This document shows positions 10,334-54,798 of a DNA stretch of 64,000 nt, piece after piece. Within the stretch, counting starts at the first letter, position 1; each line of letters begins with the position of its first letter. The stretch covers positions 15,392-79,391 of the forward strand of contig BEHE01000009.1 in assembly GCA_002898395.1 (NCBI GenBank), read 5' to 3'. Under the pieces are notes generated by a model, which saw nothing but the letters and a program-made list of their open reading frames with translations, was not told the origin of the DNA and made no database searches. The translations under genes and the position numbers were made by a program. The DNA is from Candidatus Calditenuaceae archaeon HR02. Its GTDB lineage: Archaea > Thermoproteota > Nitrososphaeria_A > Caldarchaeales > Calditenuaceae.

Positions 10334-11430
10334 TAGACCAGATAATCGTCTAAGGGGTAGGAGGTGAGTGGTATGGCAGATTCCTCCGTGACCAAGACTG
10401 TGTCCTCCATTCTGACACCCCACTCACCCATTATATAGATACCCGGCTCACAGGTCACCACGTTATTCTCCATGAACTGGTCTTGACTGCCAGGACCTAT
10501 TCTCGGGGGCTCATGAATATCAATCCCCACGCCGTGGCCTAGGCTGTGTATAAAGTAGGATCCCATCCCCTTGCTGCTTAGTGAGTCACGGGCTATGTCG
10601 TCAACGTAGCTGCATGAGACTCCTGGCCGCATTATGCTTTGAGCCAGCGTCTTGGCGTTTATAACGGATTCGAATGCATTCTGAAGTTTCTCATCCATCT
10701 CTTTTCCGATGTAGAAGGTCCTAGTTATATCGGAGCAGTATCCCTCTACTTTCACACCAAGATCAATGACAACTACATCACCCTTCTTTAGGACCCTATC
10801 TCTAGTCGTTCCTCTTTGGATTGGCCCGTGGGGGAAGGCTGAGCGCTCTCCGAAAGCAACTATCGGCGCGAAGGCGGGCTCTTGGCCCACACGCCTGTAA
10901 ATTTCAGCGGTCAGCTCCGCCTTGACCTCACTCTCCCTAATCCCTGGTACCAAGAGGTCTGAGGCTGCCCTCATGACCTTGTCGGAGATTGAGCAGGCTT
11001 CCCTAATCACCTCCACCTCATATGGATCCTTTGACATTCTCATGTCCCATACGAGCCTTGACTGTGGCCGCAGGTCTATACCTCCTATTAGGGCGCTGAT
11101 CTTCCTATAAGTCTCGATGTCTAGGTTGTCTATTCCGACCATTCCTCCTAACTGGCTGAGAATCTCTGCGAGGAGCGCTTCTGGCGCAGCCCCCATTTTT
11201 AACTGCACTATCTCGATCTCCTGCGAAGCCTCCTTCTCTGCGAGACCGTAGTTCATTGGTGAAACGTAGAGAATTGCTGAGCCATCTTGGCGGATAAGGA
11301 GTGTTGCTGGACCTGGTAGTCCCGTGAAGTAGAAAATGTTTGACTCGTTGATGCATATGTAGGCGTTGAATCCGGAGAGCTCCAGCCGTGCTGCAAACTT
11401 TTCAATCCTGTCCTTATACCTCAACTCCAA
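10330..11430 (-). CDS. M24 family Xaa-Pro aminopeptidase/dipeptidase
   Basis: HGVGIDIHEPP, CEPGIY and MEDTV metal-ligand motifs. Confidence 0.75.
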   Translation of the reverse strand: MELRYKDRIEKFAARLELSGFNAYICINESNIFYFTGLPGPATLLIRQDGSAILYVSPMNYGLAEKEASQEIEIVQLKMGAAPEALLAEILSQLGGMVGIDNLDIETYRKISALIGGIDLRPQSRLVWDMRMSKDPYEVEVIREACSISDKVMRAASDLLVPGIRESEVKAELTAEIYRRVGQEPAFAPIVAFGERSAFPHGPIQRGTTRDRVLKKGDVVVIDLGVKVEGYCSDITRTFYIGKEMDEKLQNAFESVINAKTLAQSIMRPGVSCSYVDDIARDSLSSKGMGSYFIHSLGHGVGIDIHEPPRIGPGSQDQFMENNVVTCEPGIYIMGEWGVRMEDTVLVTEESAIPLTSYPLDDYLVY

Positions 11431-12099: not shown

Positions 12100-14424
12100 T
12101 TAGGTTCGCACTACGTCGTGTATCACTATTGTGGTCTTCCCGTCTATCTTGTGTATTGTGGCGAGCGCTTTGAAGACTTTCCCCTTCTTTATTAGGTCTC
12201 TGGGGCCGTTGTATGCTGTTGCGTCGAGCCTCGCCCTAAACCTGTCATCAACCACTACTATCGCGAATCCTGGATAGATCTTCTCGACCATTATCTCGTG
12301 GACTTTCTCGGGGGCCTTGGAAGCCTTCACAGCGGCCTTTGCAACATATCTTTCACCCGACTTGACCACTAGTCCGTCCCTGACTAGCCTGTTCAACGAT
12401 ATCCTGACTATGTCGGGGCTGTGGCTGAGAAGGTCCATGGCATCGGCCATGGATAAGCCCTTAACTCCAGCCTCCAGAAGCCTGTCGTAGAGCTCTCTCC
12501 TACACCTGAGAAGCTCCCCATAGCTGATCTTGGAAGTATCAATAGAGGGTTCGCTCTCCTTGGTCTTCTCTAATTCACCTTCAACCACCACTTCTAGCGC
12601 GTCCCGCCTCCAGGGCCACGGCTCTCCGGGCTTAGGCTCAGGCCCCCTCCTCTCGACCTTGAAGCCGCTCAGCTTCTTCGAGACGTTCTCAAGGATTTTA
12701 GCCATCTTCCTAGCCCTCCTATACCCTTCCCTGAAGTAGTATTCGTCCACTGTTTTCTCCGTGATGAGAATGGTTACTTTCCCAGGTAGTCTCCTACCAG
12801 TCCTTCCCCTTCTCTGTATGTATCTTATCCCTGAGACTGCCGGCTCGTAGAATATAACGTATCCGCACTCAGGTATGTCTAGGCCCTCCTCTCCTATAGA
12901 TGTGGCTACTAGTACTTTGAATTCTCCCCTCCTGAAGGCATCTAGTATCTTCTTCTGCTCCTCCTGGCTCATCCTCGGGCCCATCTTACCCTCACCCTTA
13001 CCTATGAAGAGGTGTGCAGATACTCCTCTAGACCTTAGCCGCTCAACCAGTATCTCGGCCGTGTGCCTAATATTGGCGAATACCATAATCCTGTCACCCG
13101 GCTTCTCCCTTAGGTGCTGGTCGACTAGGGCTAGGAGGGCCTCGACCTTGCTGTGGTCCTCGCTGCACTTCTCAGCCATCCTGACTAGCTCCTGGAATTC
13201 TGGTCTCCTAGAGAGCATCTTGTGGCTCTTCAGCTCCGAGTTTGAGATCTCCCTCAGATACTCCCTCAACGAGTAGGCGTGCTGGCTCTCTATCAACTCC
13301 AAGGCATGGTAGAGGCTCAGGAGCTCAGAGCATAGTGCCACGTAGTGCATGTTCTGGCCCTTAACGCCTGAGTCTATCTCAGCCCTAAGCCTAGCCATGA
13401 GCTGGACTATCACCTTCCTGTTTATGCCCTCTAGCGGAGACCTGAGCAGGCCATATGTCTGTAGTTGCCTAGCCGTAGACTCTATCATCCGCTTTATACG
13501 GCTCCTAATCGCCTCGTATGACTGTGGGAGCCCCAGCTTAACCCACGCAACCTTAACCCCTGGAATATAGCTCGAGACATCCTCATCCTCCTCTGTCCTC
13601 CAGACAATCCTCTCTATCCAGAGGTTCTTGACGACCTCGAGCACTCTCTCCTCCTCGCTCCCCGGACTAGCTGTAAGCCCGAGAATCCTGGGCCACGGGC
13701 ATTTCCTAACGTATTCGGACGCGAGCCTAGTATAGGCGTATCTGCTCCTACTTCTGTGGCACTCGTCGAAGACTAGTAGGGCGAACTCCTCAAGCCTTAT
13801 CCAGCCCCGTCTATAGTCGTTATAGGCTGTCTGGGGTGTTGAGAATACCAGCCTGATAGAGGGGTTCTCCCAGACCATTCTCCTATTGGTGTCCACCACC
13901 TCTCCGGTAACGGCCACGGCCTCGCCCTCCGATATGTTGAGGTGTTTTAGGAAGCTCTGCCTGTGCTGTAGGACTAGCGGCTTGGTTGGAGCCATCATGA
14001 GTATTCTGCATCTAGGATGCCTGTGGAGCAGCTCTGCGGCCACTAGCTCGGCTATGACAGTCTTACCCAGTGCTGTGGGTAGGACTACTAGAGTATTGCC
14101 CTTGAGGGCTCCCCCAACCATCCCCCTCTGATAATCTCGGTCCTCGATCGTCTCGGTCCTAACCATGGGATGAGTTACAAACTGCCTCATCTCCACCCTC
14201 TCAACCTCCTCCGTTGTTCTCTCTTGGACGACTGTTTGGTTGGGCGTCGGGGATGCCAATAGACCCTCAGCAACCTTCACCGCATAGATGTGCTTACAGT
14301 CCCTGCCCTGCTTCTTGGCCCTGTATACGTAGTCAGGGCATGTGCACGTGAATTTTTCCCCGTCAAACGTTACTCTGTAGGTCTTTGAGGGGTCTTCCTG
14401 GCTGGGGACATCCCAGACACGCAT
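12100..14424 (-). CDS. Hef/FANCM-family SF2 helicase with N-terminal SWIM-type zinc finger and C-terminal winged-helix-like region; no ERCC4 nuclease domain
   Basis: N-terminal FTCTCPDY...CKHIYAV (CxCxnCxH); Walker A LPTALGKT; DECH box; LGLTASPG motif III typical of Hef/RIG-I/FANCM. Confidence 0.7.
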   Translation of the reverse strand: MRVWDVPSQEDPSKTYRVTFDGEKFTCTCPDYVYRAKKQGRDCKHIYAVKVAEGLLASPTPNQTVVQERTTEEVERVEMRQFVTHPMVRTETIEDRDYQRGMVGGALKGNTLVVLPTALGKTVIAELVAAELLHRHPRCRILMMAPTKPLVLQHRQSFLKHLNISEGEAVAVTGEVVDTNRRMVWENPSIRLVFSTPQTAYNDYRRGWIRLEEFALLVFDECHRSRSRYAYTRLASEYVRKCPWPRILGLTASPGSEEERVLEVVKNLWIERIVWRTEEDEDVSSYIPGVKVAWVKLGLPQSYEAIRSRIKRMIESTARQLQTYGLLRSPLEGINRKVIVQLMARLRAEIDSGVKGQNMHYVALCSELLSLYHALELIESQHAYSLREYLREISNSELKSHKMLSRRPEFQELVRMAEKCSEDHSKVEALLALVDQHLREKPGDRIMVFANIRHTAEILVERLRSRGVSAHLFIGKGEGKMGPRMSQEEQKKILDAFRRGEFKVLVATSIGEEGLDIPECGYVIFYEPAVSGIRYIQRRGRTGRRLPGKVTILITEKTVDEYYFREGYRRARKMAKILENVSKKLSGFKVERRGPEPKPGEPWPWRRDALEVVVEGELEKTKESEPSIDTSKISYGELLRCRRELYDRLLEAGVKGLSMADAMDLLSHSPDIVRISLNRLVRDGLVVKSGERYVAKAAVKASKAPEKVHEIMVEKIYPGFAIVVVDDRFRARLDATAYNGPRDLIKKGKVFKALATIHKIDGKTTIVIHDVVRT

Positions 14425-14457
14425 CTAAGCCTATCTGGCCCACGATTCATAAATATT

Positions 14458-14754
14458 TTGAATGCCTTCATATGTTTGATGAGCTATCGTAGGGGTAGGA
14501 GGTTTGAGTATGAGGTTAGGGATTATTTTGGGAGTAGGGGCTGGCTTGTAATAAGGGCCGCTAGGAGCAAGCCAGTAGACCTGGTGTGTATTAAGGGTGG
14601 TAGGGTGGTTCTGGTTGAGTGCAGGTATGCTGGAGGAAGGCTCACGAGGAGTGAGAGGAGGAGCCTAGCGAGGATGGCTAGGAGGTATCGTGTCGGTGTA
14701 ATTATAGCTCATAGGAGGGTGAGGGGAGGTCTGGAGCTTACGACAGTGAAGTAG
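14458..14754 (+). CDS. Mini Holliday-junction-resolvase-like PD-(D/E)xK nuclease (Hjc family); probable start at the internal Met (MSYRRG)
   Basis: Aligns by eye with Hjc: RGxxxExxVxxxxxxxGWxVIRAAxS...VDLVxIKGGxVVLVECR; divergent from the helicase gene. Confidence 0.55.
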   Translation: MNAFICLMSYRRGRRFEYEVRDYFGSRGWLVIRAARSKPVDLVCIKGGRVVLVECRYAGGRLTRSERRSLARMARRYRVGVIIAHRRVRGGLELTTVK

Positions 14755-14838: not shown

Positions 14839-15177
14839 CTATATTTCTAGTGACTCGTCTGGGCTTGTTTCCTTGGGGTTTACCTTTTCAATGGCCTTTA
14901 GAACGTCTTCTAGCCTCTCGTCGGAGAGTAGTTTCCTGAATGTCTCAAGCTCGTCTACTGTCCTTAGGATTAATCCCCTCTTCTTGGTTGGCGCTCCATC
15001 ATCACCCACAGGGTTAATCTCTACTAGTAGTGATGCTGGCCTGCCTCTAGATGCTGGTGCCTTGACGACGAATATTCCCGGAGAGCCCCTAACCGGAACC
15101 CTCTGCCAATCCCTACCACTCTCAAGAACCCTCCTCAAAGACTCTTCCAGCGTCATCGGCTGAGGAGGTGAATCCAT
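14839..15177 (-). CDS. Hypothetical protein
   Basis: ORF only; no motif recognised. Confidence 0.3.
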   Translation of the reverse strand: MDSPPQPMTLEESLRRVLESGRDWQRVPVRGSPGIFVVKAPASRGRPASLLVEINPVGDDGAPTKKRGLILRTVDELETFRKLLSDERLEDVLKAIEKVNPKETSPDESLEI

Positions 15178-15669: not shown

Positions 15670-17949
15670 CTAAGCAACCTCGTCGATCATAGTAGGGGCG
15701 TTCGTGGACAACTCCCTTTCAAACCTGAATATCTTAGCTTCGGCGCCCTCGAACACTTCCTCGTCATGGGTTATAATTATCACCTGCCTAACTGCCTTGC
15801 TCAGGCTAGTGAAGACGTCTAGCAGCCTCTTTCTATTTTCTGAGTCTAAATGGATTGTGGGTTCATCGAGAATGAAGAAGCCCAGTCTCTGGGCGCCCAA
15901 CACATCCCCTATCGCGAACCTGAGTGCCAGGGCAAGGGCAACTTTCTCTCCCCCGCTTAGCCTACTCATATCCACTTCTCTGCCCCTGAAGAAGCATTTG
16001 AACATGATTTTTACGCCGCTTTCCTCGATCTTGACATCATCTATCCTGACGTCAAAGGCGTCTAAGTAGCTCTTGGCGTGGTCTGCAACCTTTCTGAATA
16101 TCCACGTCCTCAGGCTCCTCAATACTACACCATCGCGGTAGAACAACTCGTTCCTTACCTTATCCATGAGCCTGTAGAACCTCTCGGCCCTGACAAGTAC
16201 TTCCCTGACCCTTTGCAACTCTTTAATCTTCTTTTTAGCCTCCTCAAGCTCTTTCTCAACGCTTTCCAATCTTGCCTCTCGATCGCTGATCAATTTTATG
16301 AGACCCTTTTCTTCGACTTCCAGCCTTCCGAGTTCTTCAGGATTGAATTCCTTTTTCCGAGCCTCCTTCACTCTCTCTTTCAGCCAAGGGAGGAGCTGCT
16401 CTCCCTCTTCTCCGATTAGCCTACTAATGTCCTCGAGTAGCTGGTCTTCTAGATTGACTTCTCCCCAGATCACTTGATTTAGCGTCTCCAAACTCCGCTT
16501 AGCCTCCTCTAACATGGCTTTAGCTTTCTTAACACCTTCCGGGCCCCCGATCTTTTCTAGTTCTTCCGACGCCCTCTTAACCTCTTCACGTAGCCATGAG
16601 ACCTCTTTCCCATATAACTTGCTGAGGTTATCTCTCTCCTTCTTGGCTTCATCTAATTTCTTTGTGAGAGAGCGTAGTTCCCGGTCTATTTCCTCGAGCT
16701 GCTTACTTACCTGGTCGCGCTCCTTTTCCCGGTTGGCAACATGGCTTGCTAAGGCGGAGCTATACGCCTCTGAGACCACCGCCACAACCTCTTCTACTTC
16801 TTGGTCTACCTGTAGGCTGAGGAGATTTATCTGGCCTCCCTTACTAATAGCTAGGGTTCTGCCCAGCTCGATCGCGTCATCCCTAAGCTTCTCGGCTTTG
16901 ACGCGGGCCTCCTTTTCAAGTTCTTTTAAGGTCTTAGCTTTCGAAGCATCCACCTTGACCCTGCCCAGCTCGTCTTCTATCTCCTTCAAGCGTTTACTCG
17001 CTTCTTCCCTCCTCGCCTTCAGTGAGAATAAGTCGCCTTTAATCTTCTCGATCTTCTTATCAAGTTCCTCTACACTCTTAACTCTCTTTTCTATATCGTC
17101 CTTCAACTCTATCAACTTAAGATACTCTAAGCCCTTCTCCGAGATGTCTCGCAACCGGGTCACTTTATCATTCAATAAATCCCTAAGCGTTAGGAGGTCT
17201 AATCGTATTTTTTCAAGAAGTTCTCTCACCTGTCTCAGCTCCTTAATCCTTGCGTCTACTTTTTCTTTCATTCGTTTAAGCTTATCTAGCTCCTTTTGTA
17301 GTGATGCTCTTGTTTCCTCACCTGTTTCGGCCTTCTTTTCAAGCCCTCTTAGTTCTTCACCCACCTTATCGGCCTCTCGCGGGGGCCTCCCAACCTCCCT
17401 GACCACCCTCTCTTCAAAGCTTTTGAGGACTTCAAGCATGGCATAGTAGGCTTTTTCCATGGCAGTGAGACCCATTAAGTCGTCGAACAGCTCTTTGAGG
17501 TCTTTTGGATCAGCGGAGAGTATCTTATCGAGTTCTCCCTGCTGGATTATCACCGCGGTTCTCATCCTATCGTAGTTTAGTTCGAACAGTTCTTGAACAG
17601 CCTTTGATACGGTTTCTTCCCCTCTCTTCTCACCGGAGGCAATTAATTCCCCATCCTTTCTCAGCGTAGCGGATTCAAGGTTTCCTCTCACGTCAAAGCT
17701 CCTAACGATCTGATACTTACTGCCCCTATACTCGAATTCGAGCTCAACTCTACCGCTGTCTGTCCCGTCTCTCACAATATTCCTATTTCCGCCCTTCATG
17801 TGCTTCCCATAGAGGGCGTAGGTTATCCCGTCTATCACGGAGCTCTTGCCAGAGCCGTTTCTCCCAAGGAAGATAGTCAATCCTTCTGGAAACTTTATCT
17901 CGGTTTCTTTGTGGCAGGTGAAGTTTAGGAGCTTAACCCTCACTATCAC
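15670..17949 (-). CDS. rad50: Rad50-type SMC-like ATPase (DSB repair), no recognisable CxxC zinc hook
   Basis: N-terminal GRNGSGKSS Walker A; long coiled coil; C-terminal LSGGEKV signature; FILDEPTIHLD Walker B; only two Cys in the whole protein. Confidence 0.8.
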   Translation of the reverse strand: MIVRVKLLNFTCHKETEIKFPEGLTIFLGRNGSGKSSVIDGITYALYGKHMKGGNRNIVRDGTDSGRVELEFEYRGSKYQIVRSFDVRGNLESATLRKDGELIASGEKRGEETVSKAVQELFELNYDRMRTAVIIQQGELDKILSADPKDLKELFDDLMGLTAMEKAYYAMLEVLKSFEERVVREVGRPPREADKVGEELRGLEKKAETGEETRASLQKELDKLKRMKEKVDARIKELRQVRELLEKIRLDLLTLRDLLNDKVTRLRDISEKGLEYLKLIELKDDIEKRVKSVEELDKKIEKIKGDLFSLKARREEASKRLKEIEDELGRVKVDASKAKTLKELEKEARVKAEKLRDDAIELGRTLAISKGGQINLLSLQVDQEVEEVVAVVSEAYSSALASHVANREKERDQVSKQLEEIDRELRSLTKKLDEAKKERDNLSKLYGKEVSWLREEVKRASEELEKIGGPEGVKKAKAMLEEAKRSLETLNQVIWGEVNLEDQLLEDISRLIGEEGEQLLPWLKERVKEARKKEFNPEELGRLEVEEKGLIKLISDREARLESVEKELEEAKKKIKELQRVREVLVRAERFYRLMDKVRNELFYRDGVVLRSLRTWIFRKVADHAKSYLDAFDVRIDDVKIEESGVKIMFKCFFRGREVDMSRLSGGEKVALALALRFAIGDVLGAQRLGFFILDEPTIHLDSENRKRLLDVFTSLSKAVRQVIIITHDEEVFEGAEAKIFRFERELSTNAPTMIDEVA

Positions 17950-19069
17950 TCCCAGCCCAATCCCTCGGCCACGATTTCCAAAGCTTCCAGACAGCTTCCT
18001 TCGCGTTTACTAGATCTCCTGAAGCTAGGCGAGGGAGTAGCTCGTTTAGGGCAAAATCTATGACCTTCTCGTCTCCTATCGCCTTCACCGCGAGCCTTCT
18101 GAGCTCCCCATCAATACTAATCTCCGGCTCGCTTGCGTATACCTTTCCCTCAGTTGGGGCTGGAATCACCTGTAGCCTCTTGATTATGAACTTATCACTA
18201 AGCCTCTGCTCAATACTCTGGACACTTACCGGCCTATCGGCCTTGACGACAAGCCATAAGCATGGCTTGGACGGATAGTCGACGCCGGTGATCTCCTTGA
18301 CCTTCTCGTCAAGCTCTCTTACATCTACCTCGAGTCTGAGTTTCGGCCTAACGTTTGGGAGCCTGACCCATTCGGCTAGGGCCTGATCACCTGATAAATC
18401 CACTATGAAGACGCCGCACTCACCGGAGTCGTCGACCTTGACCCAATGCGTTGCTCCGGGGTAGGCTAGTAGTCCACTTCCCCAATTCCGTTTATAGCTC
18501 TTATGAATGTGCCCCATCGCATAGTAGTCGAATCCGGCAGGTAGCTCGAATATCGAGAGCTCGGCTCCAAGCTCCCAGGCCTCCTTTATCCCCTGATGGA
18601 GGACTAGGACCTTCTTTCCCCCTATATTCGGTAGCATCCTCTGAATTTTTTCAAATTTTTCTATGAGAGATTTCCACTCAACCCGCTTATGCTTATGGAG
18701 GCCTATTACGGTAACCCCTCCAACTTGGTATGGTTCGCCTGTTCCAATATATCTGCCGAGGCCCTGTAGCTGTAGGATTATGGGATGCGGCGTTGAGGGG
18801 ACGTTGCTTATGTCATGCTCTCCGAGCGTGAATAAGAATGGGATGCCGCGCCCTTTCAGCTTTCTCACTTCCTGGATCAAGACCTTCATTGCTGTTCCAT
18901 AGGGTTTCGGCTCATGTAGAATGTCTCCTGAGTGGATTACGAGTTCAACTCTTTCTCTGATGAATAGGTCTATGGCATCCTTAAACGCATTGTAGTGGTC
19001 TTCTTCTCTCTCTGGCTCGACTCCCGCATGGACCCCCAGATGCGTGTCGGATATGTGACCGATCATCAT
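17933..19069 (-). CDS. mre11: Mre11 DSB-repair nuclease (calcineurin-like phosphoesterase)
   Basis: MMIGHISDTHLG, HSGDILH, GEHD and MGHIH phosphoesterase motifs; overlaps the rad50 start. Confidence 0.85.
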   Translation of the reverse strand: MMIGHISDTHLGVHAGVEPEREEDHYNAFKDAIDLFIRERVELVIHSGDILHEPKPYGTAMKVLIQEVRKLKGRGIPFLFTLGEHDISNVPSTPHPIILQLQGLGRYIGTGEPYQVGGVTVIGLHKHKRVEWKSLIEKFEKIQRMLPNIGGKKVLVLHQGIKEAWELGAELSIFELPAGFDYYAMGHIHKSYKRNWGSGLLAYPGATHWVKVDDSGECGVFIVDLSGDQALAEWVRLPNVRPKLRLEVDVRELDEKVKEITGVDYPSKPCLWLVVKADRPVSVQSIEQRLSDKFIIKRLQVIPAPTEGKVYASEPEISIDGELRRLAVKAIGDEKVIDFALNELLPRLASGDLVNAKEAVWKLWKSWPRDWAGSDSEG

Positions 19070-20562
19070 AGCTTTATCAGCTCCTCCGTCGAGTAGTCGG
19101 AACCAGAACCATACTCTCTCTCCCATAAATCGACTGCATCCAAGTCTCTACCGATCAACTTCTCCTCTACGAGATCCACCTTAACGAGGGCTGGAACTTT
19201 GATGAACTGGCCTGCGAGTATCATCTCTCCTGGGTTCAGGCTTGGTAGAGAGGTGCCGAGCTCTTCTGATACGTCGTCGGTGACCTCCCTGACGAAGTTC
19301 TGGTCTTTTGGATGTATTAGACCTGAGATCGCAAAGCTCCCCATCTGACTTATCGTGTCGGCGTCCAGCTTGCTCGGCCTCTGCGAGATGATTATCAGCG
19401 ATACCCCGAACTTCCTACCCTCCCTAGCAATTCTCGCGATTATCTCCGAGCACCTAGTCCGCCTTTCTGATGGGAGGAATGCATGAGCCTCCTCTATCAC
19501 CACTATCACAGGCGACTTGAACTTCGCCCCGCCCTCGCCCCTAACCGCATTCTTCCTATCCTGCAGTATCTCTTCTAGGTAGCGATCAACTATGATTTGG
19601 GACTGATATTCCGTCAACTCTGAGATATCGAGGACGTTTACCCTATTGTTGACGATTACATCGAGTGGGCTTCTAGCCGAAGGATCGAATACCTTTCCCC
19701 ACACGGTTAGAGCCCTGTTGATTATCTCGGTAACGCTCACAGCCCTAATCCTCGTCTGGAAATCAAAGTTGTTATCATCCACGGCTATTGCCTGAAGTCT
19801 TCCAATAATAGCCCCCCAGAAGTCTTCAGCCTCCCTAACCTCTTGAGTATAGACTTGTTGAAGTAAGCCCCTCTGCCTTTCGGCATCCCTCCTGACTCCC
19901 ACCAAGTCTGCCAACTCCTCTGCATCTAGGTATCGGGGATTTATCTTCGGTATGGTAATCTTTATTCCGGGGATTCTTAACTGATCGTATTCTCCATGAT
20001 AGTCGAATATCACCATGGTCCCATGTCTTTCGGAGACCTTCTTAGCGAGAAGGGCTAAGAGATTTGACTTGCCCTTGCCAGTTGCCGCCAATATCGCTAG
20101 ATGCCTCGAGGCGACCATGTTCAAGTTTATCGATACCCTGACCTCGGGCCTTCTCAGCAGATAGCCCACGCCCACCCATCTCTTCCCCTCGGAGCCGTAG
20201 ATACTCTTCAGCAAATCATCTCCGGCCGGTTTAACAGATGCTCCAGGCTCAGGCGGCAACGTAGGGTAAATTCTCCTACCCTCCAATAGCTCATTAACGA
20301 GTCCAAGAGCCCTAGCGATGCCTATCCTAACCCTATCTCTCGGGTTCTTACTGCTTGCCCGCCTCACCTCGTCAGCAGTTTGGTAATCTGTTTCATTTTG
20401 CAACAACTCACTGATGTTCCTAAACCCCTCAACCATGTAGACTATGGGCCCATCCTCGGTGTCCACAACTACATAATCCCCAACTCTTACTGGGTACTTC
20501 GCCACGAACTCTATCCTATCGGGTCTCGCCTCCCCTATCACGATTCCGACCTCGTCGCTCAT
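19066..20562 (-). CDS. herA: HerA hexameric DNA helicase/translocase
   Basis: HLAILAATGKGKS Walker A; N-terminal HAS barrel region; position inside the Mre11 operon. Confidence 0.85.
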   Translation of the reverse strand: MSDEVGIVIGEARPDRIEFVAKYPVRVGDYVVVDTEDGPIVYMVEGFRNISELLQNETDYQTADEVRRASSKNPRDRVRIGIARALGLVNELLEGRRIYPTLPPEPGASVKPAGDDLLKSIYGSEGKRWVGVGYLLRRPEVRVSINLNMVASRHLAILAATGKGKSNLLALLAKKVSERHGTMVIFDYHGEYDQLRIPGIKITIPKINPRYLDAEELADLVGVRRDAERQRGLLQQVYTQEVREAEDFWGAIIGRLQAIAVDDNNFDFQTRIRAVSVTEIINRALTVWGKVFDPSARSPLDVIVNNRVNVLDISELTEYQSQIIVDRYLEEILQDRKNAVRGEGGAKFKSPVIVVIEEAHAFLPSERRTRCSEIIARIAREGRKFGVSLIIISQRPSKLDADTISQMGSFAISGLIHPKDQNFVREVTDDVSEELGTSLPSLNPGEMILAGQFIKVPALVKVDLVEEKLIGRDLDAVDLWEREYGSGSDYSTEELIKL

Positions 20563-21446
20563 TCCTCAAGCACCTCCCTAGCCTCGACCCATCCGGTTAG
20601 GCCGGCCGTCTTACAGATAAGATCCATTAACTGGTCTGGCAGGTTGGCGGTCTTGTGGGCTAGCCTGAGGGCGTAGGGATAGCCAGCGATGGACCTTTCA
20701 CGCAGAACGTCTATGAACCATTTGACGGAGTCTTCTTCTACTACGGCTGGCACTTCTATGTGCAGGGCGTTGGAGTGCTCTGACAATCTAACGTAGAATA
20801 TCGAGAACTTATAATCTTCTCTTTCGATGACATGTGGTGCCGTATACCCTACCCCCTTGGTTGCATGGTTAATGTAATATACGTCTCCGAGAACTCCGCC
20901 GAATAGGCTTTTATCATGCGAATATTTCGAGACGAATGCTAGCTTATCGTTGCCCATGAGAGGTTTAACGTAGGCCATGTATTCAGTCTGAAGGCTTTTG
21001 GAAATTCTTTTACTGATATCAGCCAGCCTAGCAATAAGGGAGCCATCAACTAGAACTAGGTCAGGGTCCTCCTCTTCGGAAACATTATAGGCTATGCTAT
21101 GCTCGTGGATCTCGGCCTGGTACTTAAGGAAGAGATCTGGAGACAGGGCCGCGTCGTAGGGGTCGCCTGATAACATATCAACATCCGTTACGGATTGGTA
21201 GGTGTTCACGGCCTCATCAACGGCTGCCGCCTTCATGGCGTAGATATAGAAGCCTGTGTAGAGCCTGTAGTTCCAACCGCTGTCAATAGCGAGGATACCA
21301 GCCCTTCTCGGCTTTGGGCTATATTCTATATAGCAAGCCCTCGCCCTGTCCAAGATCTCTTTAACCGTTCCCGCCCCATCCGTTCTCTTAAATTCCTCGA
21401 GCTTGGCCTTCAGGCGGACGGCCTTCTCGAAAAGCTCCTCCAGCAT
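20559..21446 (-). CDS. nurA: NurA 5'-3' nuclease
   Basis: ILAIDSGWNYRL motif carrying the catalytic Asp; translationally coupled to herA. Confidence 0.75.
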   Translation of the reverse strand: MLEELFEKAVRLKAKLEEFKRTDGAGTVKEILDRARACYIEYSPKPRRAGILAIDSGWNYRLYTGFYIYAMKAAAVDEAVNTYQSVTDVDMLSGDPYDAALSPDLFLKYQAEIHEHSIAYNVSEEEDPDLVLVDGSLIARLADISKRISKSLQTEYMAYVKPLMGNDKLAFVSKYSHDKSLFGGVLGDVYYINHATKGVGYTAPHVIEREDYKFSIFYVRLSEHSNALHIEVPAVVEEDSVKWFIDVLRERSIAGYPYALRLAHKTANLPDQLMDLICKTAGLTGWVEAREVLEE

Positions 21447-21559: not shown

Positions 21560-21949
21560 CTAGATTAGATTGGTTAGGTAACTCTTAATCCGTATATAAC
21601 TGGGAGCTCGGTCACTATGTGGAGCTCCCTGAATAATTTGTCTCGAGATTACTATGCTTAGCTCCCCCCTGGCTTGGGCTTCCAGCCTCCTAGTGTGTGC
21701 TGCCTTTATCAGCTCCGCTATTGATTCTGGGTCTCTCCTTATGTCTGATGCCTGTATTCTGAATACGTCGTATCCAGCCTCCCTCAGCGTCTCAATCTTC
21801 CTCATGTCCTTCTCCTGTATCCTTTCCTGGTAGTGCTGGAGGCCGTCAACCTCGACGACTATCATGCTATCCGGTATGAGTATGTCCACGTTATATCCCT
21901 CGAAGTACACGTTGGTCACGTGGCGTATGTCCCGTCTCCAGAGCTCCAC
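21560..21949 (-). CDS. DUF559-type endonuclease domain protein (Vsr/restriction-endonuclease-like fold)
   Basis: VDILIPDSMIVVEVDGLQH ... KIETLREAGYDVFRI pattern. Confidence 0.55.
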   Translation of the reverse strand: MELWRRDIRHVTNVYFEGYNVDILIPDSMIVVEVDGLQHYQERIQEKDMRKIETLREAGYDVFRIQASDIRRDPESIAELIKAAHTRRLEAQARGELSIVISRQIIQGAPHSDRAPSYIRIKSYLTNLI

Positions 21950-24865: not shown

Positions 24866-25915
24866 ATGGCCATTTATCCGCGAAGGCTTCAGAGATTAGG
24901 CACAACCACGCTCGTAGTATCGCTGCCTAAACAATGGGTTGCTGAGAGGAGGCTAAAGCCCGGCGACATCGTCTACATCGAGGCTAACGGAGACAGCCTC
25001 ACCATACATAGTAGAGAAGTTGTGCATGAGCCTGCGTCGGCAGTCATAAATGCCGACGAGGTAGAGAAGCCCGAGGTCTTGGCCAGGATAGTTACCTCCT
25101 GCTTCTTACAGGGATACGACATAGTCAAGGTCATCTCTAACACAGGTCTCACGGGTAGTCAATCCCACGCTATATTGGCTGCAGTTGAGTCTCTTCCAGG
25201 TTTTGAAGTTATTGAACAGACACCGAGGCAGATAGTATTGCAGGCGATAATTGACCCGACGCGGTTTAAGGTCGAGGCCATAATCAGGCGACTCAACGTT
25301 CTGGTCATATCCATGTTAGGTGTTGCCATAGACTCGCTTGTCCGCGGAATCTCTGAGAAGGCGGGGGATGTTATAAACACGGGAAAGAAGCTTGAGGAGC
25401 TCTACTCCATAGTCGTAAGGCAGCTAATCCTCGCCCTCAGAAACCCATCACTCGCACACACAATAGGAATCGACATGCCAATCGCTGTTCTGGGATACAG
25501 GCTTGTCGCAAAGGCTCTAGAAGAGGCAGGGCAACATGCTATCGCACTGGCAAAAGAGAGCCTGAACATCAGGCATAAAGGAGCACCGACCAAGAAGAAG
25601 GTTGTAGACAGGCTAGTCTCATTGGCTGAAGATATTCAGAGCCTTCTCACAAACGGTGTCAACGCCTTCCTAACACTTGACCTCAAGATGATAAATAATG
25701 TCCTCGACTCCTTGGAGGGTTTGGCTGATGAGATTGAGTCAACCGAGCGGGAGTTGATTGAGGAAGTAAGTGACGTCGAGTTCTCCCTCTCCCTCAGGGT
25801 CTCGCTGATGCACTTCTCGGCAATACTGGATTCGGTTAAGATGATTGCAGAGGTGGCGTTGAACAAGTTTGTGAGAATGAATACAGATATTGTCCAGGCG
25901 GTTAGTCCTCCCTAA
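24866..25915 (+). CDS. SpoVT/AbrB-domain + PhoU-like domain regulator, paralog 1
   Basis: N-terminal LVVSLPKQWVAERRLKPGDIV swapped-hairpin motif; helical PhoU-like remainder. Confidence 0.55.
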   Translation: MAIYPRRLQRLGTTTLVVSLPKQWVAERRLKPGDIVYIEANGDSLTIHSREVVHEPASAVINADEVEKPEVLARIVTSCFLQGYDIVKVISNTGLTGSQSHAILAAVESLPGFEVIEQTPRQIVLQAIIDPTRFKVEAIIRRLNVLVISMLGVAIDSLVRGISEKAGDVINTGKKLEELYSIVVRQLILALRNPSLAHTIGIDMPIAVLGYRLVAKALEEAGQHAIALAKESLNIRHKGAPTKKKVVDRLVSLAEDIQSLLTNGVNAFLTLDLKMINNVLDSLEGLADEIESTERELIEEVSDVEFSLSLRVSLMHFSAILDSVKMIAEVALNKFVRMNTDIVQAVSPP

Positions 25916-26646
25916 ATGGCTGAATCTGGACCCCCTACGAGTCTTGCTGCGCGTCTAAATACGTTGTTTATCATCCGCTGGGTTAGTAGTCGTGTCTGCG
26001 TGTTCCTCCTGCTCGGATGATAGGTCGCCAGTAGCCAGATAACCCGCCCACCCTGTCTCTGAGTAAATCTGTAGGCCTGCCCGTGCTTGAACACGGGTCT
26101 ACCACTATCTGGTGTGAACCCCTTATCCCGGAGAAGCCTAACAGATGTGCTGAATGCTAGGCTCCCTAACGCCACTATGACCCTTACCCCTTCGAGAGCA
26201 TCGAATTCCTCTCTCAGATATCTATAGCAATTCTCCAGCTCTTCTTTAAGCGGTGTATTACCTGGCGGAACACATCGCAGGGCAGCGGTCAGGAAGCACC
26301 CCGTCAGTCTCAACCCATCATTGAGGCTTATCGAATAGGGAATATTCGCCAGGCCATTTGCGTATAGTGCCTTGATCAGAGTATTGCCAGCGCTATCCCC
26401 AGTGAACATACGGCCCGTCCTATTGCCTCCATGCGCAGCGGGGGCTAAGCCTATGACGAGAATCGAGGCCTTTGGGTCTCCGAAACCTGGTAGAGGCTTG
26501 GCCCAGTAAGTCTCTGCGGAGTATCTTTTGGGTGGATGCCGCGCGACCTCCTGCCTATATTTTACGAGTCTGGGGCATAGGGTGCATGAGACTATTCTAT
26601 CGCTTATCTCGGCCAGTCTCTTCTCGAATTGGTCTTGGGACATCAT
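25912..26646 (-). CDS. udgB: Uracil-DNA glycosylase, family 5 (UdgB-type)
   Basis: Motif A is GLAPAAHGG (not GEAPG); motif B HPS; N-terminal CxxC. Confidence 0.7.
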   Translation of the reverse strand: MMSQDQFEKRLAEISDRIVSCTLCPRLVKYRQEVARHPPKRYSAETYWAKPLPGFGDPKASILVIGLAPAAHGGNRTGRMFTGDSAGNTLIKALYANGLANIPYSISLNDGLRLTGCFLTAALRCVPPGNTPLKEELENCYRYLREEFDALEGVRVIVALGSLAFSTSVRLLRDKGFTPDSGRPVFKHGQAYRFTQRQGGRVIWLLATYHPSRRNTQTRLLTQRMINNVFRRAARLVGGPDSAI

Positions 26647-52185: not shown

Positions 52186-54798
52186 ATGCTTGAGACGCTT
52201 TGGATTTGGCGTGACGAGCGTGTCGTAAAAAGGCTCTCGTGGTATCTTGCGGTCTCAACCAACAAGATGCCTGCAAAGTATCTGATATGTCGGAGGATAC
52301 CGGTTGATGTGGATTTTAGCGCCAGCGAAGAGGAGCTCTGGGACGCGAACAGGAGGGCTGCTAAGATTTTCGATCAGATTCACAGGGGCATAAGGAGGGG
52401 CGAGATAGCCCTCGGAGATCTTGAGAAGCCGAAGAAGAGTCTCATGGATTTGAAGGTTGAACTTGTGAACAAGATGCTCAGGCACTGCAACTTCTGCAGG
52501 TGGAACTGTAAGGTAGACAGGCTCCAGGGCCAAAAGAGGGGTACATGCATGCTCGATTGGACATCTCGTGTGAGCAGCTACTTCCACCACCTCGGAGAGG
52601 AGCTCCCTATACGCGGGGTGAGAGGCTCAGGCACAATATTCTTCACGTCATGCAACATGAGGTGTGGTTTTTGCGTTCATCCAGACACCTACGTAATGAC
52701 CGACACGGGGCCTAGGAGGATAGAGGAGTTATTCTTAGAGGCTGAAGGGGCAGTATTGCACGGCGACGGCTACGTAAGGTTTCCAAGGGAGGTATACACC
52801 TACACGTACGACGGTAAAAGGGTTAAGGTATCTAAGGTCTTCAAGCATTTTTACGCCGGTGATCTTATCGTCATCAAGCCTTTCTACGCACCTCCTATAA
52901 ATGTAACGCCAGCTCATGAGCTAGTAGTTTATAGCGAGGAGGAAGGAGGAATAAGGAAAAAGAAGGCTAGCGAACTTAGCATAGGAGATAAGTTGTTGAT
53001 ACCTAGACTGAAGAGGGAAAGCGGCGAAGAAGTCTGTATAGACGTAGGGCGAATTTTGGAGAGCGCTATAGCTGAGCTTAAGTTCTTCGTGAACATTCAG
53101 CCGGAGATGCACGAGCTAGTCGTCAAACTTCACGAATCAGGCCTGACATCTAGCGAGATAGGGGGGAGGACGGGTTACCACCCTGCATACGTTAGAGGCC
53201 TTATAAGTAGGTTAAGAAGGGGCGAGGTAGGAGGCAAGGAGAAAAAGAACTCATTAGTCTTTGAGGACGGTAGAGTGAGATTAAAGACAGAAAAGCGACC
53301 TGGCATACCAGCTAAGTTGAAGCTCGATGAGGAGGTTGCCGAGCTATTAGGATATTATTGCGCTGAGGGCCATGTGAGTAAGTGTAGCGACAGGCCGAGT
53401 AGTTATAAATTAGTGATCAGCTTCGGCAAAAATGAAAGGGATTTAGCCGCTAGAACAAAGACTCTCTTGGAGAAGAAGTTCGACATAAGTGCACGGATAG
53501 TTGAGCGCAAGACGACCATAAGCGTCGAAGTGGGCAAAACTTCGCTGGCCCTTCTCTTCAAATCGTTATGCGGAAGCAATTCATACGATAAGAAAGTACC
53601 TCCCCACCTATTCAAGGCGCCTGATAGCGTGATAGAGTCGTTCACAGAGGCTATTAACGTAGGGGACGGGTGTATAACAGGGGGTTACGTATCCATTAAT
53701 ACGTCGTCGAGGGAGTTGGCGCATGGATTATATGGGCTATATATACTGTTAGGGCACCTCCCGAGCTATAACGTCTATAAACCATCTGCTGAGAAGATCA
53801 TAGAGTCTAGGAGAGTTAAGCAATCTATAATCTACTACGTGAAGGTTAGATTATCTAGGATGCGTGATAAATCTTGGAGAGAAGCTAAACACGTCAGGTA
53901 TAGATTTACAGACGATTACATAATAGTCCCGATACACTCAATATCGAAGAAACGATACACCGGCCCAGTATATAACATGGAGGTGGACGACAAGAGTCAT
54001 ACATACACGGCTAGCTACATAGCTATAGGTAACTGCCAGAACGGGGACATAAGCAGGGATAAGGATAATGGGCTGGTTGTGGACCCTGAACTCCTAGCCA
54101 TGATGATGTGGGAGCTGAGGGTTGAGGGCTGCCATAACATAAACTTGGTGGGCGGCGAGCCGACAATCCACCTACATACAATAGTCGAGGCCATATCCCT
54201 CTTAGGAAGCATCCAGCCTACGCGGGATAAGCTAACCTATCTCTGGATGATGAAGCCCGACGCGCTCAGGTGGCGGAGGCTCGAGCCATCCCAGTACCTC
54301 TACGGCGGAGAGCTAAACACACCCATTCTCTGGAACTCGAACATGTACATGAGTGGCGAGACCCTCGCGATTTTGAGGGAGCTCGTAGACATCTGGCTTC
54401 CAGACTTTAAGTTTGGGAGTAACACCTGCTCCATAAAGCTGGCGAGGACTCCATGGTACTGGGAGACCGTCTCAGCTAATCATAAGACAATCTACGACTG
54501 GGGTGAGGATATAGTGATTAGGCACTTGGTCATGCCCAACCACGTTGAGTGCTGCACCAAGAGGGTTCTCTCTTGGATAGCGGAGAACATGCCTGGCACC
54601 CCAGTCAACGTAATGGACCAATACCATCCCGACTGCTTCGCAGACCCTCTAAGCCCCGAATTCGACCCACGGTACAGCGAGATCGCGCGGAGACCTACGA
54701 AGGAGGAGATACTTGAGGCCTATAGGTATGCGAGGGACCTGGGACTCCCCTTCGAATCCATAAGCCTGGAGAAAAGCGTGTTTGGCTTGCGTCCTTAG
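52186..54798 (+). CDS. PflX-family radical SAM enzyme (COG1313), interrupted by an intein
   Basis: Exteins: ...FFTSCNMRCGF | CQNGDISRD...GGEPTIHL...; the spliced join restores the family signature CNxRCxFCQN; the mature protein would be ~416 aa. Confidence 0.8.
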   Translation: MLETLWIWRDERVVKRLSWYLAVSTNKMPAKYLICRRIPVDVDFSASEEELWDANRRAAKIFDQIHRGIRRGEIALGDLEKPKKSLMDLKVELVNKMLRHCNFCRWNCKVDRLQGQKRGTCMLDWTSRVSSYFHHLGEELPIRGVRGSGTIFFTSCNMRCGFCVHPDTYVMTDTGPRRIEELFLEAEGAVLHGDGYVRFPREVYTYTYDGKRVKVSKVFKHFYAGDLIVIKPFYAPPINVTPAHELVVYSEEEGGIRKKKASELSIGDKLLIPRLKRESGEEVCIDVGRILESAIAELKFFVNIQPEMHELVVKLHESGLTSSEIGGRTGYHPAYVRGLISRLRRGEVGGKEKKNSLVFEDGRVRLKTEKRPGIPAKLKLDEEVAELLGYYCAEGHVSKCSDRPSSYKLVISFGKNERDLAARTKTLLEKKFDISARIVERKTTISVEVGKTSLALLFKSLCGSNSYDKKVPPHLFKAPDSVIESFTEAINVGDGCITGGYVSINTSSRELAHGLYGLYILLGHLPSYNVYKPSAEKIIESRRVKQSIIYYVKVRLSRMRDKSWREAKHVRYRFTDDYIIVPIHSISKKRYTGPVYNMEVDDKSHTYTASYIAIGNCQNGDISRDKDNGLVVDPELLAMMMWELRVEGCHNINLVGGEPTIHLHTIVEAISLLGSIQPTRDKLTYLWMMKPDALRWRRLEPSQYLYGGELNTPILWNSNMYMSGETLAILRELVDIWLPDFKFGSNTCSIKLARTPWYWETVSANHKTIYDWGEDIVIRHLVMPNHVECCTKRVLSWIAENMPGTPVNVMDQYHPDCFADPLSPEFDPRYSEIARRPTKEEILEAYRYARDLGLPFESISLEKSVFGLRP
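52672..54033 (+). mobile_element. Intein (454 aa) with LAGLIDADG homing-endonuclease domain
   Basis: Block A CVHPDTYVMTDTG; block B TPAHELV; LAGLIDADG blocks LLGYYCAEGHVS and INVGDGCITGG; C-terminus ...YIAIGN followed by +1 Cys. Confidence 0.8.

Follow-up and report, generated by a model that had tools for sequence, protein, structure and literature searches.

A Hef/FANCM-type helicase without a nuclease domain, with orf112 and a core-only Hjc-family gene as neighbours, in Candidatus Calditenuaceae archaeon HR02

Hef and FANCM are central to the rescue of stalled replication forks. Euryarchaeal Hef (helicase-associated endonuclease for fork-structured DNA), as known from Pyrococcus furiosus, joins a superfamily 2 (SF2) helicase core to an ERCC4 nuclease and an HhH2 domain, and FANCM carries a degenerate ERCC4-HhH2 module that pairs with FAAP24. 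Hef has been called euryarchaeon-specific in a review, and in Haloferax volcanii it is functionally connected with the junction resolvase Hjc, the two acting in alternative, jointly essential pathways (PMC7776575). Full-text literature searches found no paper on Hef-type helicases in Thaumarchaeota/Aigarchaeota or outside Euryarchaeota. Here we describe a Hef/FANCM-type helicase without a nuclease domain in a stretch of 64,000 nucleotides (the window) that forms part of an 83-kb contig of Candidatus (Ca.) Calditenuaceae archaeon HR02 (Aigarchaeota/Nitrososphaerota), together with two small neighbouring genes, an unannotated one that we call orf112 and one of the Hjc family (mini-Hjc). The locus does not represent a new kind of system: known repair parts occur here in a lineage-specific variant or rearrangement, of which the conserved orf112-helicase operon is the most interesting element.

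The helicase gene (12100..14424, minus strand) encodes 774 amino acids (aa). A preliminary description of this DNA, made from the sequence alone, had assigned the protein to the Hef/FANCM type on the basis of its DECH and LGLTASPG motifs, and both the open reading frame (ORF) and the assignment hold. Motif I (Walker A, LPTALGKT at residue 115), motif II (DECH at residue 220), motif III (LGLTASPG, with TASPG at residue 251) and motif VI (QRRGRTGR at residue 537) are invariant across the helicase family in our alignment. Besides the SWIM zinc finger discussed below, the Pfam matches are DEAD, the Hef-type helical bundle PF21210 (residues 312-400) and Helicase_C. The best match in the PDB is the helicase domain of P. 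furiosus Hef (1wp9, E = 3.6e-107), to which residues 88-570 align over positions 3-488; the second-best structural relative is human FANCM (9el5, E = 7.8e-61), with RIG-I, MDA5 and Dicer far behind. The aligned segment (12715..14163, minus strand) represents the SF2 motor core, which, like that of Hef, comprises two RecA-like domains, an inserted helical bundle and all the ATPase motifs.

The likeness to Hef ends with the motor. The NCBIfam model for the Hef nuclease (PRK13766) matches the helicase with 549 bits (E = 1.5e-164), below its equivalog cut-off of 610 bits, and only over profile positions 2-514 of 781, so that the nuclease half is absent. No ERCC4 or HhH/HHH domain was detected in the helicase by the Pfam scan. 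Canonical Hef relatives with 35-42% identity to it over the core (L084, L088 and L100), recovered together with the other helicase loci, do carry ERCC4 and HhH2, and other distant helicases end in short tails only. By these comparisons the protein is homologous to the Hef/FANCM motor but is not Hef proper, the defining nuclease having been looked for and not being present. Like FANCM, Mph1 and Fml1, it is a Hef-type motor, is predicted from its domains to lack a nuclease activity and, to judge from gene order, apparently has one or more small dedicated partner proteins. Unlike FANCM, it lacks the ERCC4-HhH2 module entirely, even in degenerate form.

Over 4,364 relatives in the database, together with an NCBI entry of the same sequence, show that the helicase ORF is no chance reading frame. 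That entry (P0001, 100% identity, also from HR02) is named 'ATP-dependent RNA helicase RhlB'; helicases of this kind already appear in databases under the names 'FANCM', 'ERCC4-related helicase' or 'helicase-related protein'. RhlB, or a DEAD-box RNA helicase generally, was rejected as a family assignment. Where cut-offs above 500 apply, the RhlB, SrmB and CshA models reach about 60 bits (for RhlB, about 57-59 bits where 564-588 are required), compared with the 549 bits of the Hef model, and the public name is therefore unsupported by the profile scores.

In place of the nuclease, the HR02 helicase has a winged helix-turn-helix (wHTH) domain followed by a putative S1-like OB fold, and it has gained an N-terminal SWIM finger; both points had been anticipated in the preliminary description, the C-terminal one as a winged helix plus a small beta-rich domain, and both are upheld. 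The C-terminal domains are visible in an AlphaFold model of residues 625-774, with a mean predicted local distance difference test score (pLDDT) of 84.6, as a winged helix and then a five-stranded beta barrel. The wHTH part (approximately residues 635-703; 12316..12522, minus strand) has an H-H-H-beta-beta topology with a pLDDT of about 85, its Foldseek matches are IclR/GntR-type wHTH regulators, and homologues of the helicase carry HTH_11, HTH_24 and DeoR hits in Pfam. The barrel (approximately residues 708-773; 12106..12303, minus strand) is modelled with a pLDDT of about 88-93 and superposes on the cold-shock domain (CSD) of Unr (4qqb_X, root-mean-square deviation [rmsd] 3.1 Å over 66 columns) and on an S1 domain of Mycobacterium tuberculosis (4nnh, 2.8 Å), with further Foldseek matches to the S1 domain of NusA and to exosome Rrp4/Csl4. 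The Pfam scan gave no S1 or CSD match in the C-terminus. On the strength of the model, an S1-like OB fold is the most fitting description of the beta domain. It is also the most conserved C-terminal stretch (VEKIYPGFA..FRARL..YNGPR..KKG), with invariant columns.

Between the motor and the wHTH domain lies an RxGPxPxPGxPWPW motif followed by an acidic linker (residues 592-633; 12526..12651, minus strand). Residues R592, P595, G600, P602, W603 and W605 of the motif are invariant in the alignment, and the acidic segment that comes next varies in length. The motif, the linker and the wHTH-OB module are found throughout the helicase family. The position of the motif and linker matches that of the disordered, partner-binding region of euryarchaeal Hef. 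A motif scan of the helicase, mini-Hjc and orf112 proteins found no PIP-box (PCNA-binding) motif in any of the three.

The SWIM finger (PF04434, residues 16-50; 14275..14379, minus strand) scores 24.2 bits against a cut-off of 19.6 and reads CTCPDY..CKH, with C27-x-C29 and C45-x-H47 as the putative ligands. All homologues with a SWIM finger share the CxC..CxH pattern, which is absent from the distant helicases that are linked to orf112. The finger is an add-on of the Aigarchaeota-type and Wolframiiraptor-type helicases, and since distant orf112-linked members without it still have the wHTH-OB module, it is dispensable for the family. The same CxCxnCxH signature marks the known SWIM proteins (SWI2/SNF2 ATPases, MuDR transposases and MEKK1); in bacterial SWI2/SNF2 proteins it is likewise fused to an SF2-type ATPase, as was reportedly noted by Makarova, Aravind and Koonin in 2002. 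Unlike in the SWI2/SNF2 proteins, the finger here sits on a Hef-type and not an SNF2-type motor, and full-text literature searches found no paper that describes an architecture of SWIM, Hef motor and wHTH-OB. The helicase of Ca. Caldarchaeum subterraneum (L108 10707-13061; BA000048.1, ~924 kb) is annotated as 694 aa from L108 10977, while its open frame reaches an upstream ATG at 10707. The probable start is MPIHWDVPSQ at ~10725, and the extension encodes the SWIM finger CTCPDY..CKH, so the deposited annotation truncates the SWIM domain.

The preliminary description had proposed the helicase and a junction nuclease as a two-gene unit. The most constant neighbour of the helicase is instead orf112 (14839..15156, minus strand), which lies just beyond the segment described there. 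It encodes 105 aa from a conserved start. Its 106 close homologues (61-75% identity) are all called 'hypothetical' and none has a Pfam domain; an exhaustive profile search yielded 311 representative clusters, nearly all of them standalone proteins of ~100-115 aa, with named members that include Nitrososphaerota and a Helarchaeota (Asgard) metagenome-assembled genome. Among distant helicases from metagenome loci (33-39% identity, wHTH and OB retained), 19 of the 30 loci with an upstream flank have an orf112 homologue immediately before the helicase gene and in the same orientation. The same arrangement is found in L005 (Wolframiiraptor) and L016, and in a quick neighbour-joining tree of the helicases it is the arrangement of all the deep branches. 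In the window and in L106, L107 and L108 (Ca. C. subterraneum), the mini-Hjc gene is inserted in inverted orientation between the two, with the order and strand of orf112 and the helicase gene kept. Hence orf112 is the gene most consistently attached to the helicase, and it is more widespread in that position than mini-Hjc.

The AlphaFold model of orf112 (pLDDT 85.8) has an alpha-beta4-alpha-alpha arrangement with a disordered tail. All 23 members examined have a basic core (isoelectric point 9.0-10.7) and a tail that ends in E-[DE]-[VIL]-[FLI]-E-I; in the window copy the acidic C-terminal tip reads DESLEI. Nothing significant was found for orf112 in Pfam, NCBIfam, PADLOC, PHROGs, the PDB by sequence profile, or by Foldseek against the PDB and BFVD. 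Resemblances to PC4/PUR-alpha, SH2 and rudivirus ORF131-like proteins reach a TM-score of at most 0.47 and were not taken as evidence. Compared with the FANCM partners FAAP24 and MHF1/2, the protein resembles neither FAAP24 nor the histone-fold MHF proteins in sequence or fold. A flexible tail with an acidic-hydrophobic tip may be compared with the tail by which bacterial SSB recruits helicases, an analogy drawn from charge pattern and gene order. No fusion of orf112 with the helicase occurs among the 311 representatives. The domain is present as two to four tandem copies in single polypeptides, and it takes part in two fusions, one with a RING finger (P0374) and the other with an NYN ribonuclease of the Zc3h12a type (P0384); these proteins (P0273, P0274, P0277, P0293, P0374 and P0384) have no other Pfam domains. 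From these sequences, orf112 behaves as a reusable module.

Across the spacer from the helicase gene lies the mini-Hjc gene (14479..14754, plus strand). The preliminary description had reported a protein of 98 aa that aligns with the Hjc core. The family membership holds: the small ORF matches positions 1-86 of the 93 in the Pfam Hjc profile (PF01870) and scores 32.9 bits where 21.1 is the cut-off, and a family profile searched against the PDB matched only Hjc/Hje structures, with residues 2-92 of 123 of P. furiosus Hjc (1gef) at E = 5e-12. The size does not, as translation most likely starts at the ATG at 14479 (MSYRRG..) and gives 91 aa, and not at the TTG at 14458. The ATG is preferred because the resulting protein begins like Hjc (MYRKG..), like all homologues and like the NCBI call (P0121, 91 aa). 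By the same comparisons the protein is an Hjc catalytic core without the last ~30 residues of P. furiosus Hjc, and without ~45-50 residues relative to Sulfolobus Hjc (S. solfataricus 1hh1/4tkd), the C-terminal part being missing. Unlike Hjc, it fails the NCBIfam equivalog NF040854 (14.1 bits against a cut-off of 70, with only residues 10-57 matched). Its 46 database relatives of 91-120 aa, all with PF01870, show that this ORF is no chance reading frame either.

The PD-(D/E)xK catalytic residues of P. furiosus Hjc (E9, D33, E46 and K48) are in register with the Glu, Asp, Glu and Lys columns of mini-Hjc. Among 22 aligned relatives, E10, D34, E47 and C48 are invariant, the cysteine in the E-C-K motif being a further difference from Hjc, and K49 is kept in at least 90%. 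The segment LVECR, cited in the preliminary description as part of the core alignment, departs from the family motif ECK, with Arg in place of the catalytic Lys. Of 28 further mini-Hjc copies taken from the loci, 26 keep the lysine and with it the full E-D-E-K set; the window copy has arginine, and one degraded remnant has threonine. In that remnant (L020 5051-5490), the N-terminal half of mini-Hjc runs directly into the last 54 residues of the helicase OB domain, as if a tandem hjc>helicase pair had suffered a large deletion or been misassembled. When the ORFs of all six frames in the window were scanned with hidden Markov models (HMMs) and phmmer, no second Hjc-like ORF came to light.

With the ATG as start, the divergent spacer (14425..14478) is 54 bp long, not 34 bp as first described, although the divergent orientation itself was described correctly. 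At its centre is its one TATA-like element, which is rich in A/T (ATAAATATTTT, 14449-14459) and lies ~25-30 nt away from each of the two start codons. The spacers of relatives have one or two TTTAAA/TTTTAAG-type boxes, and that of Ca. C. subterraneum is also 54 bp when the longer helicase start is used. From these sequences it is reasonable to infer that the two genes share a bidirectional promoter and have leaderless transcripts.

How often mini-Hjc and the helicase are neighbours depends on how the loci were ascertained, and three sets were distinguished: species-level genomes ascertained through mini-Hjc, metagenome loci ascertained through the helicase, and the closest relatives of the window. 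The divergent pair is found in all seven closest relatives (L102-L105 found via mini-Hjc, L106 and L107 via the helicase, and L108, the complete genome of Ca. C. subterraneum, via orf112), with spacers of 36-111 bp. In the mini-Hjc-ascertained set, the helicase is immediately adjacent and on the same strand in 5 of 12 loci with adequate flanks, in the order hjc -> helicase in L008, L012, L013 and L015 and helicase -> hjc in L016. Among helicase-ascertained loci of the Aigarchaeota type (53-64% identity, both flanks available), the divergent pair occurs in 5/13 (L022, L026, L029, L039 and L040), and L027 has a convergent arrangement. The pair is thus adjacent in ~40% of Aigarchaeota-type loci outside the closest relatives of the window. 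Its four orientations (divergent, tandem in both orders, and convergent) map to separate helicase subclades, which indicates that adjacency was kept through rearrangements; in the neighbour-joining tree the tandem and divergent arrangements fall in separate subclades, with scattered losses within the divergent one. Judging from gene number, two given genes would be adjacent by chance in roughly one genome in 1,000. Set against this figure, adjacency through at least three rearrangements makes the linkage meaningful.

The reading that we favour, with modest confidence, is that the locus is the Aigarchaeota version of a module for processing stalled forks and recombination intermediates, made up of three separately encoded proteins: a Hef/FANCM-type translocase, the accessory protein orf112 and a core-only Hjc. 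The helicase would act as an ATP-driven DNA translocase that remodels or branch-migrates forks and junctions in the manner of Hef and FANCM, and its wHTH-OB module, joined here by the SWIM finger, would recognise branched DNA or dock partners. As the ancestral operon partner of the helicase, orf112 would most likely be an accessory or adaptor subunit, its basic core binding nucleic acid and its tip docking on a partner, by analogy with the C-terminal tip of bacterial SSB. The core-only Hjc-family nuclease would cut four-way junctions, possibly handed over by the helicase; its gene would have been drawn next to the helicase gene in Aigarchaeota and is probably co-regulated with it from the shared bidirectional promoter. 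The domain identities, the conservation of the motifs and the neighbourhood counts are observed; DNA as the substrate, physical contacts, promoter sharing and activity of the arginine-bearing Hjc copy are inferred, and a functional coupling of the trio is what gene order suggests. Bacterial RuvAB-RuvC offers a functional analogy, in that a branch-migration motor and a junction nuclease are encoded side by side, but there is no homology, and the motor here is of SF2 type, not an AAA+ hexamer.

Several observations weigh against this reading. The other seven of the 12 mini-Hjc-ascertained loci (four Calditenuis/Calditenuaceae species and L017-L019) have no helicase within 10 kb of mini-Hjc, and the pair is also unlinked in L003 and in Wolframiiraptor. 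In the distant helicase-bearing lineages, the pairing is absent from the loci examined. L022 and L026, which have the divergent pair, and L023 and L024, which have no mini-Hjc within 3.5-5.5 kb upstream, form one tight cluster with nearly identical helicases, a contrast that shows a very recent gain, loss or relocation of the mini-Hjc neighbour. The divergent pair that had been proposed as a conserved two-gene unit is accordingly constant in the window's own clade, where it is present in 7/7, and dissolves or changes orientation beyond it: the pair is a lineage-restricted, repeatedly lost linkage and not a fixed two-gene unit. Moreover, in H. volcanii, the sole archaeon with genetics on this point, Hef and Hjc act in separate pathways and not in one complex (PMC7776575). 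The window mini-Hjc has E10, D34 and E47 but arginine for the catalytic Lys49, and may for that reason be weakened or inactive, so that a nuclease supplied in trans, as first suggested, is least secure in HR02 itself. The adaptor role of orf112, a protein with no recognisable fold, is conjecture, and the Foldseek E-values for the OB assignment are weak at ~1e-2, with rmsd values of 2.8-3.3 Å over 66-68 columns for the S1/CSD superpositions. An S1/CSD-type OB fold and kinship with RIG-I and Dicer are also compatible with an RNA substrate, and one orf112 homologue is fused to an NYN ribonuclease.

The chief competitor, which we regard as possible, holds that the genes are independent housekeeping genes in a repair island: mini-Hjc would be the lineage's general Holliday-junction resolvase and the helicase a stand-alone fork remodeller, neighbours through repair-gene clustering or shared regulation, and not with one as a substitute for the nuclease of the other. 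A review attributes an Hjc to every archaeon and places it in a pathway alternative to that of Hef (PMC7776575), and the expected ERCC4 nuclease of TACK archaea is a separate short XPF (PMC7776575, PMC5797428). The window has only the one Hjc-like ORF, in many genomes mini-Hjc lies in unrelated contexts (next to spermine synthase, HMG-CoA reductase or topoisomerase genes in individual locus look-ups), and the cluster in HR02 adjoins nurA-herA-mre11-rad50. Loose membership of an island, however, predicts less than is observed, namely immediate adjacency in four orientations across subclades and in 7/7 of the closest relatives, and the very short spacers (36-111 bp) imply coupled promoters. An unlikely reading, compatible with any of the others, makes the window mini-Hjc a catalytically impaired junction-binding protein that serves as a recognition or targeting subunit and not as a nuclease. 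The arginine at the near-invariant lysine of E-x-K recurs in one other lineage (P0140), and the rest of the window copy is well conserved (77% identity to its nearest relative), so that it is not decaying. Still, a single nucleotide separates Arg from Lys here (AGG vs AAG), a difference that in this metagenome-assembled genome may reflect strain variation or an error; all three acidic metal ligands are intact, arginine keeps the positive charge, and six of six nearest relatives checked have lysine.

The substrate might be RNA, with the helicase as an RNA helicase that binds RNA through its S1-like OB fold, but we consider this improbable. The NCBI name 'RhlB' and the Pfam label 'RNA_helicase_helical' point that way, binding RNA is typical of S1/CSD folds, the structures that come next in closeness to Hef and FANCM are those of RIG-I, MDA5 and Dicer, and the NYN fusion of orf112 would fit. 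The 'RNA helicase' label of 1wp9 and PF21210 is, however, the depositor's name for the Hef helicase domain, the RhlB models stay at ~60 bits against cut-offs above 560, and the helicase is by far most closely related to Hef and FANCM, which are DNA enzymes. The genomic neighbours, a junction-resolvase homologue and an operon for double-strand break repair, likewise argue for DNA. That an SF2 helicase and a small PD-(D/E)xK nuclease form an anti-virus defence system is scarcely credible, even though such a pairing is formally like several defence systems, a DUF559/REase-like gene lies nearby and L005 has a restriction-modification gene between the genes. Neither mini-Hjc nor orf112 belongs to any PADLOC family, and the helicase has only generic RecA/RecA2-domain matches there, of at most 88 bits; with nothing specific found there, this reading was rejected. 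All three genes are, moreover, highly conserved and core-like across the lineage (59-75% identity), and they lie in housekeeping contexts, not in variable islands.

A stronger form of the three-protein module, which we hold to be doubtful, would be a physical complex of motor, small adaptor and junction nuclease in Nitrososphaerota, in which orf112, reaching as far as Asgard archaea, would be a dedicated and hitherto undescribed subunit of a FANCM-like remodeller of archaea. Its assembly on branched DNA would be the task of the wHTH-OB module and of the acidic orf112 tip, and the assembled machine would recruit the core-only Hjc. If true, this would give a prokaryotic precedent for the eukaryotic organisation of FANCM, partner and nuclease, and would overturn the confinement of Hef-type helicases to Euryarchaeota. 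Whichever reading is taken, the locus reveals that Aigarchaeota and related Nitrososphaerota have a large, well-conserved family of Hef-type helicases. The family counts more than 4,000 relatives in the database, and in it the nuclease appears to have been exchanged for putative DNA/RNA-binding domains. Unlike Hef, helicases of the HR02 type thus occur in Nitrososphaerota-type archaea and have a dedicated small partner gene of their own, orf112, conserved and without annotation, Pfam family or recognisable fold, on which full-text literature searches also found no paper. In part of the lineage a trimmed Hjc gene is attached to the helicase, beside the Mre11-Rad50-HerA-NurA genes. The trio could serve as a compact, thermostable three-protein system for probing a nuclease-less Hef/FANCM motor with its accessory factors and junction nucleases. 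Two annotation errors are flagged as well, the name 'RhlB' in HR02 and the truncated, SWIM-less start in Ca. C. subterraneum.

The minus-strand gene order in the window is DUF559-type endonuclease, NurA, HerA, Mre11, Rad50, orf112 and helicase, with mini-Hjc on the plus strand between the last two. The nurA-herA-mre11-rad50 operon (15670..21446, minus strand) lies immediately upstream of orf112 and comprises nurA (20559-21446), herA (19066-20562), mre11 (17933-19126) and rad50 (15670-17949), identified by the Pfam matches NurA, DUF87 plus HAS barrel for HerA, Metallophos, and SMC_N/AAA_23. Synteny with Rad50/Mre11 is absent from the first set of related loci and present in Ca. C. subterraneum, where the trio has a NurA-HerA pair on one side and a cluster of NurA-HerA-Mre11-Rad50 on the other. 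The two NurA-HerA pairs that flank the trio there are at L108 5147-7569 and 16787-20318, and only the downstream pair continues into Mre11-Rad50. In HR02, the run is headed, directly upstream of nurA, by the gene for a 129-aa endonuclease-type protein of the DUF559/REase_MTES_1575 kind (Vsr-like PD-(D/E)xK; 21560-21949, minus strand). A further repair gene, of the uracil-DNA glycosylase superfamily (25912-26646, minus strand), is found ~11 kb from the trio. Elsewhere in the window, an 870-aa radical-SAM protein (52186-54798, plus strand) is split by an intein, within which lies a homing-endonuclease domain of the LAGLIDADG type (Pfam Intein_splicing, LAGLIDADG_3 and Radical_SAM).

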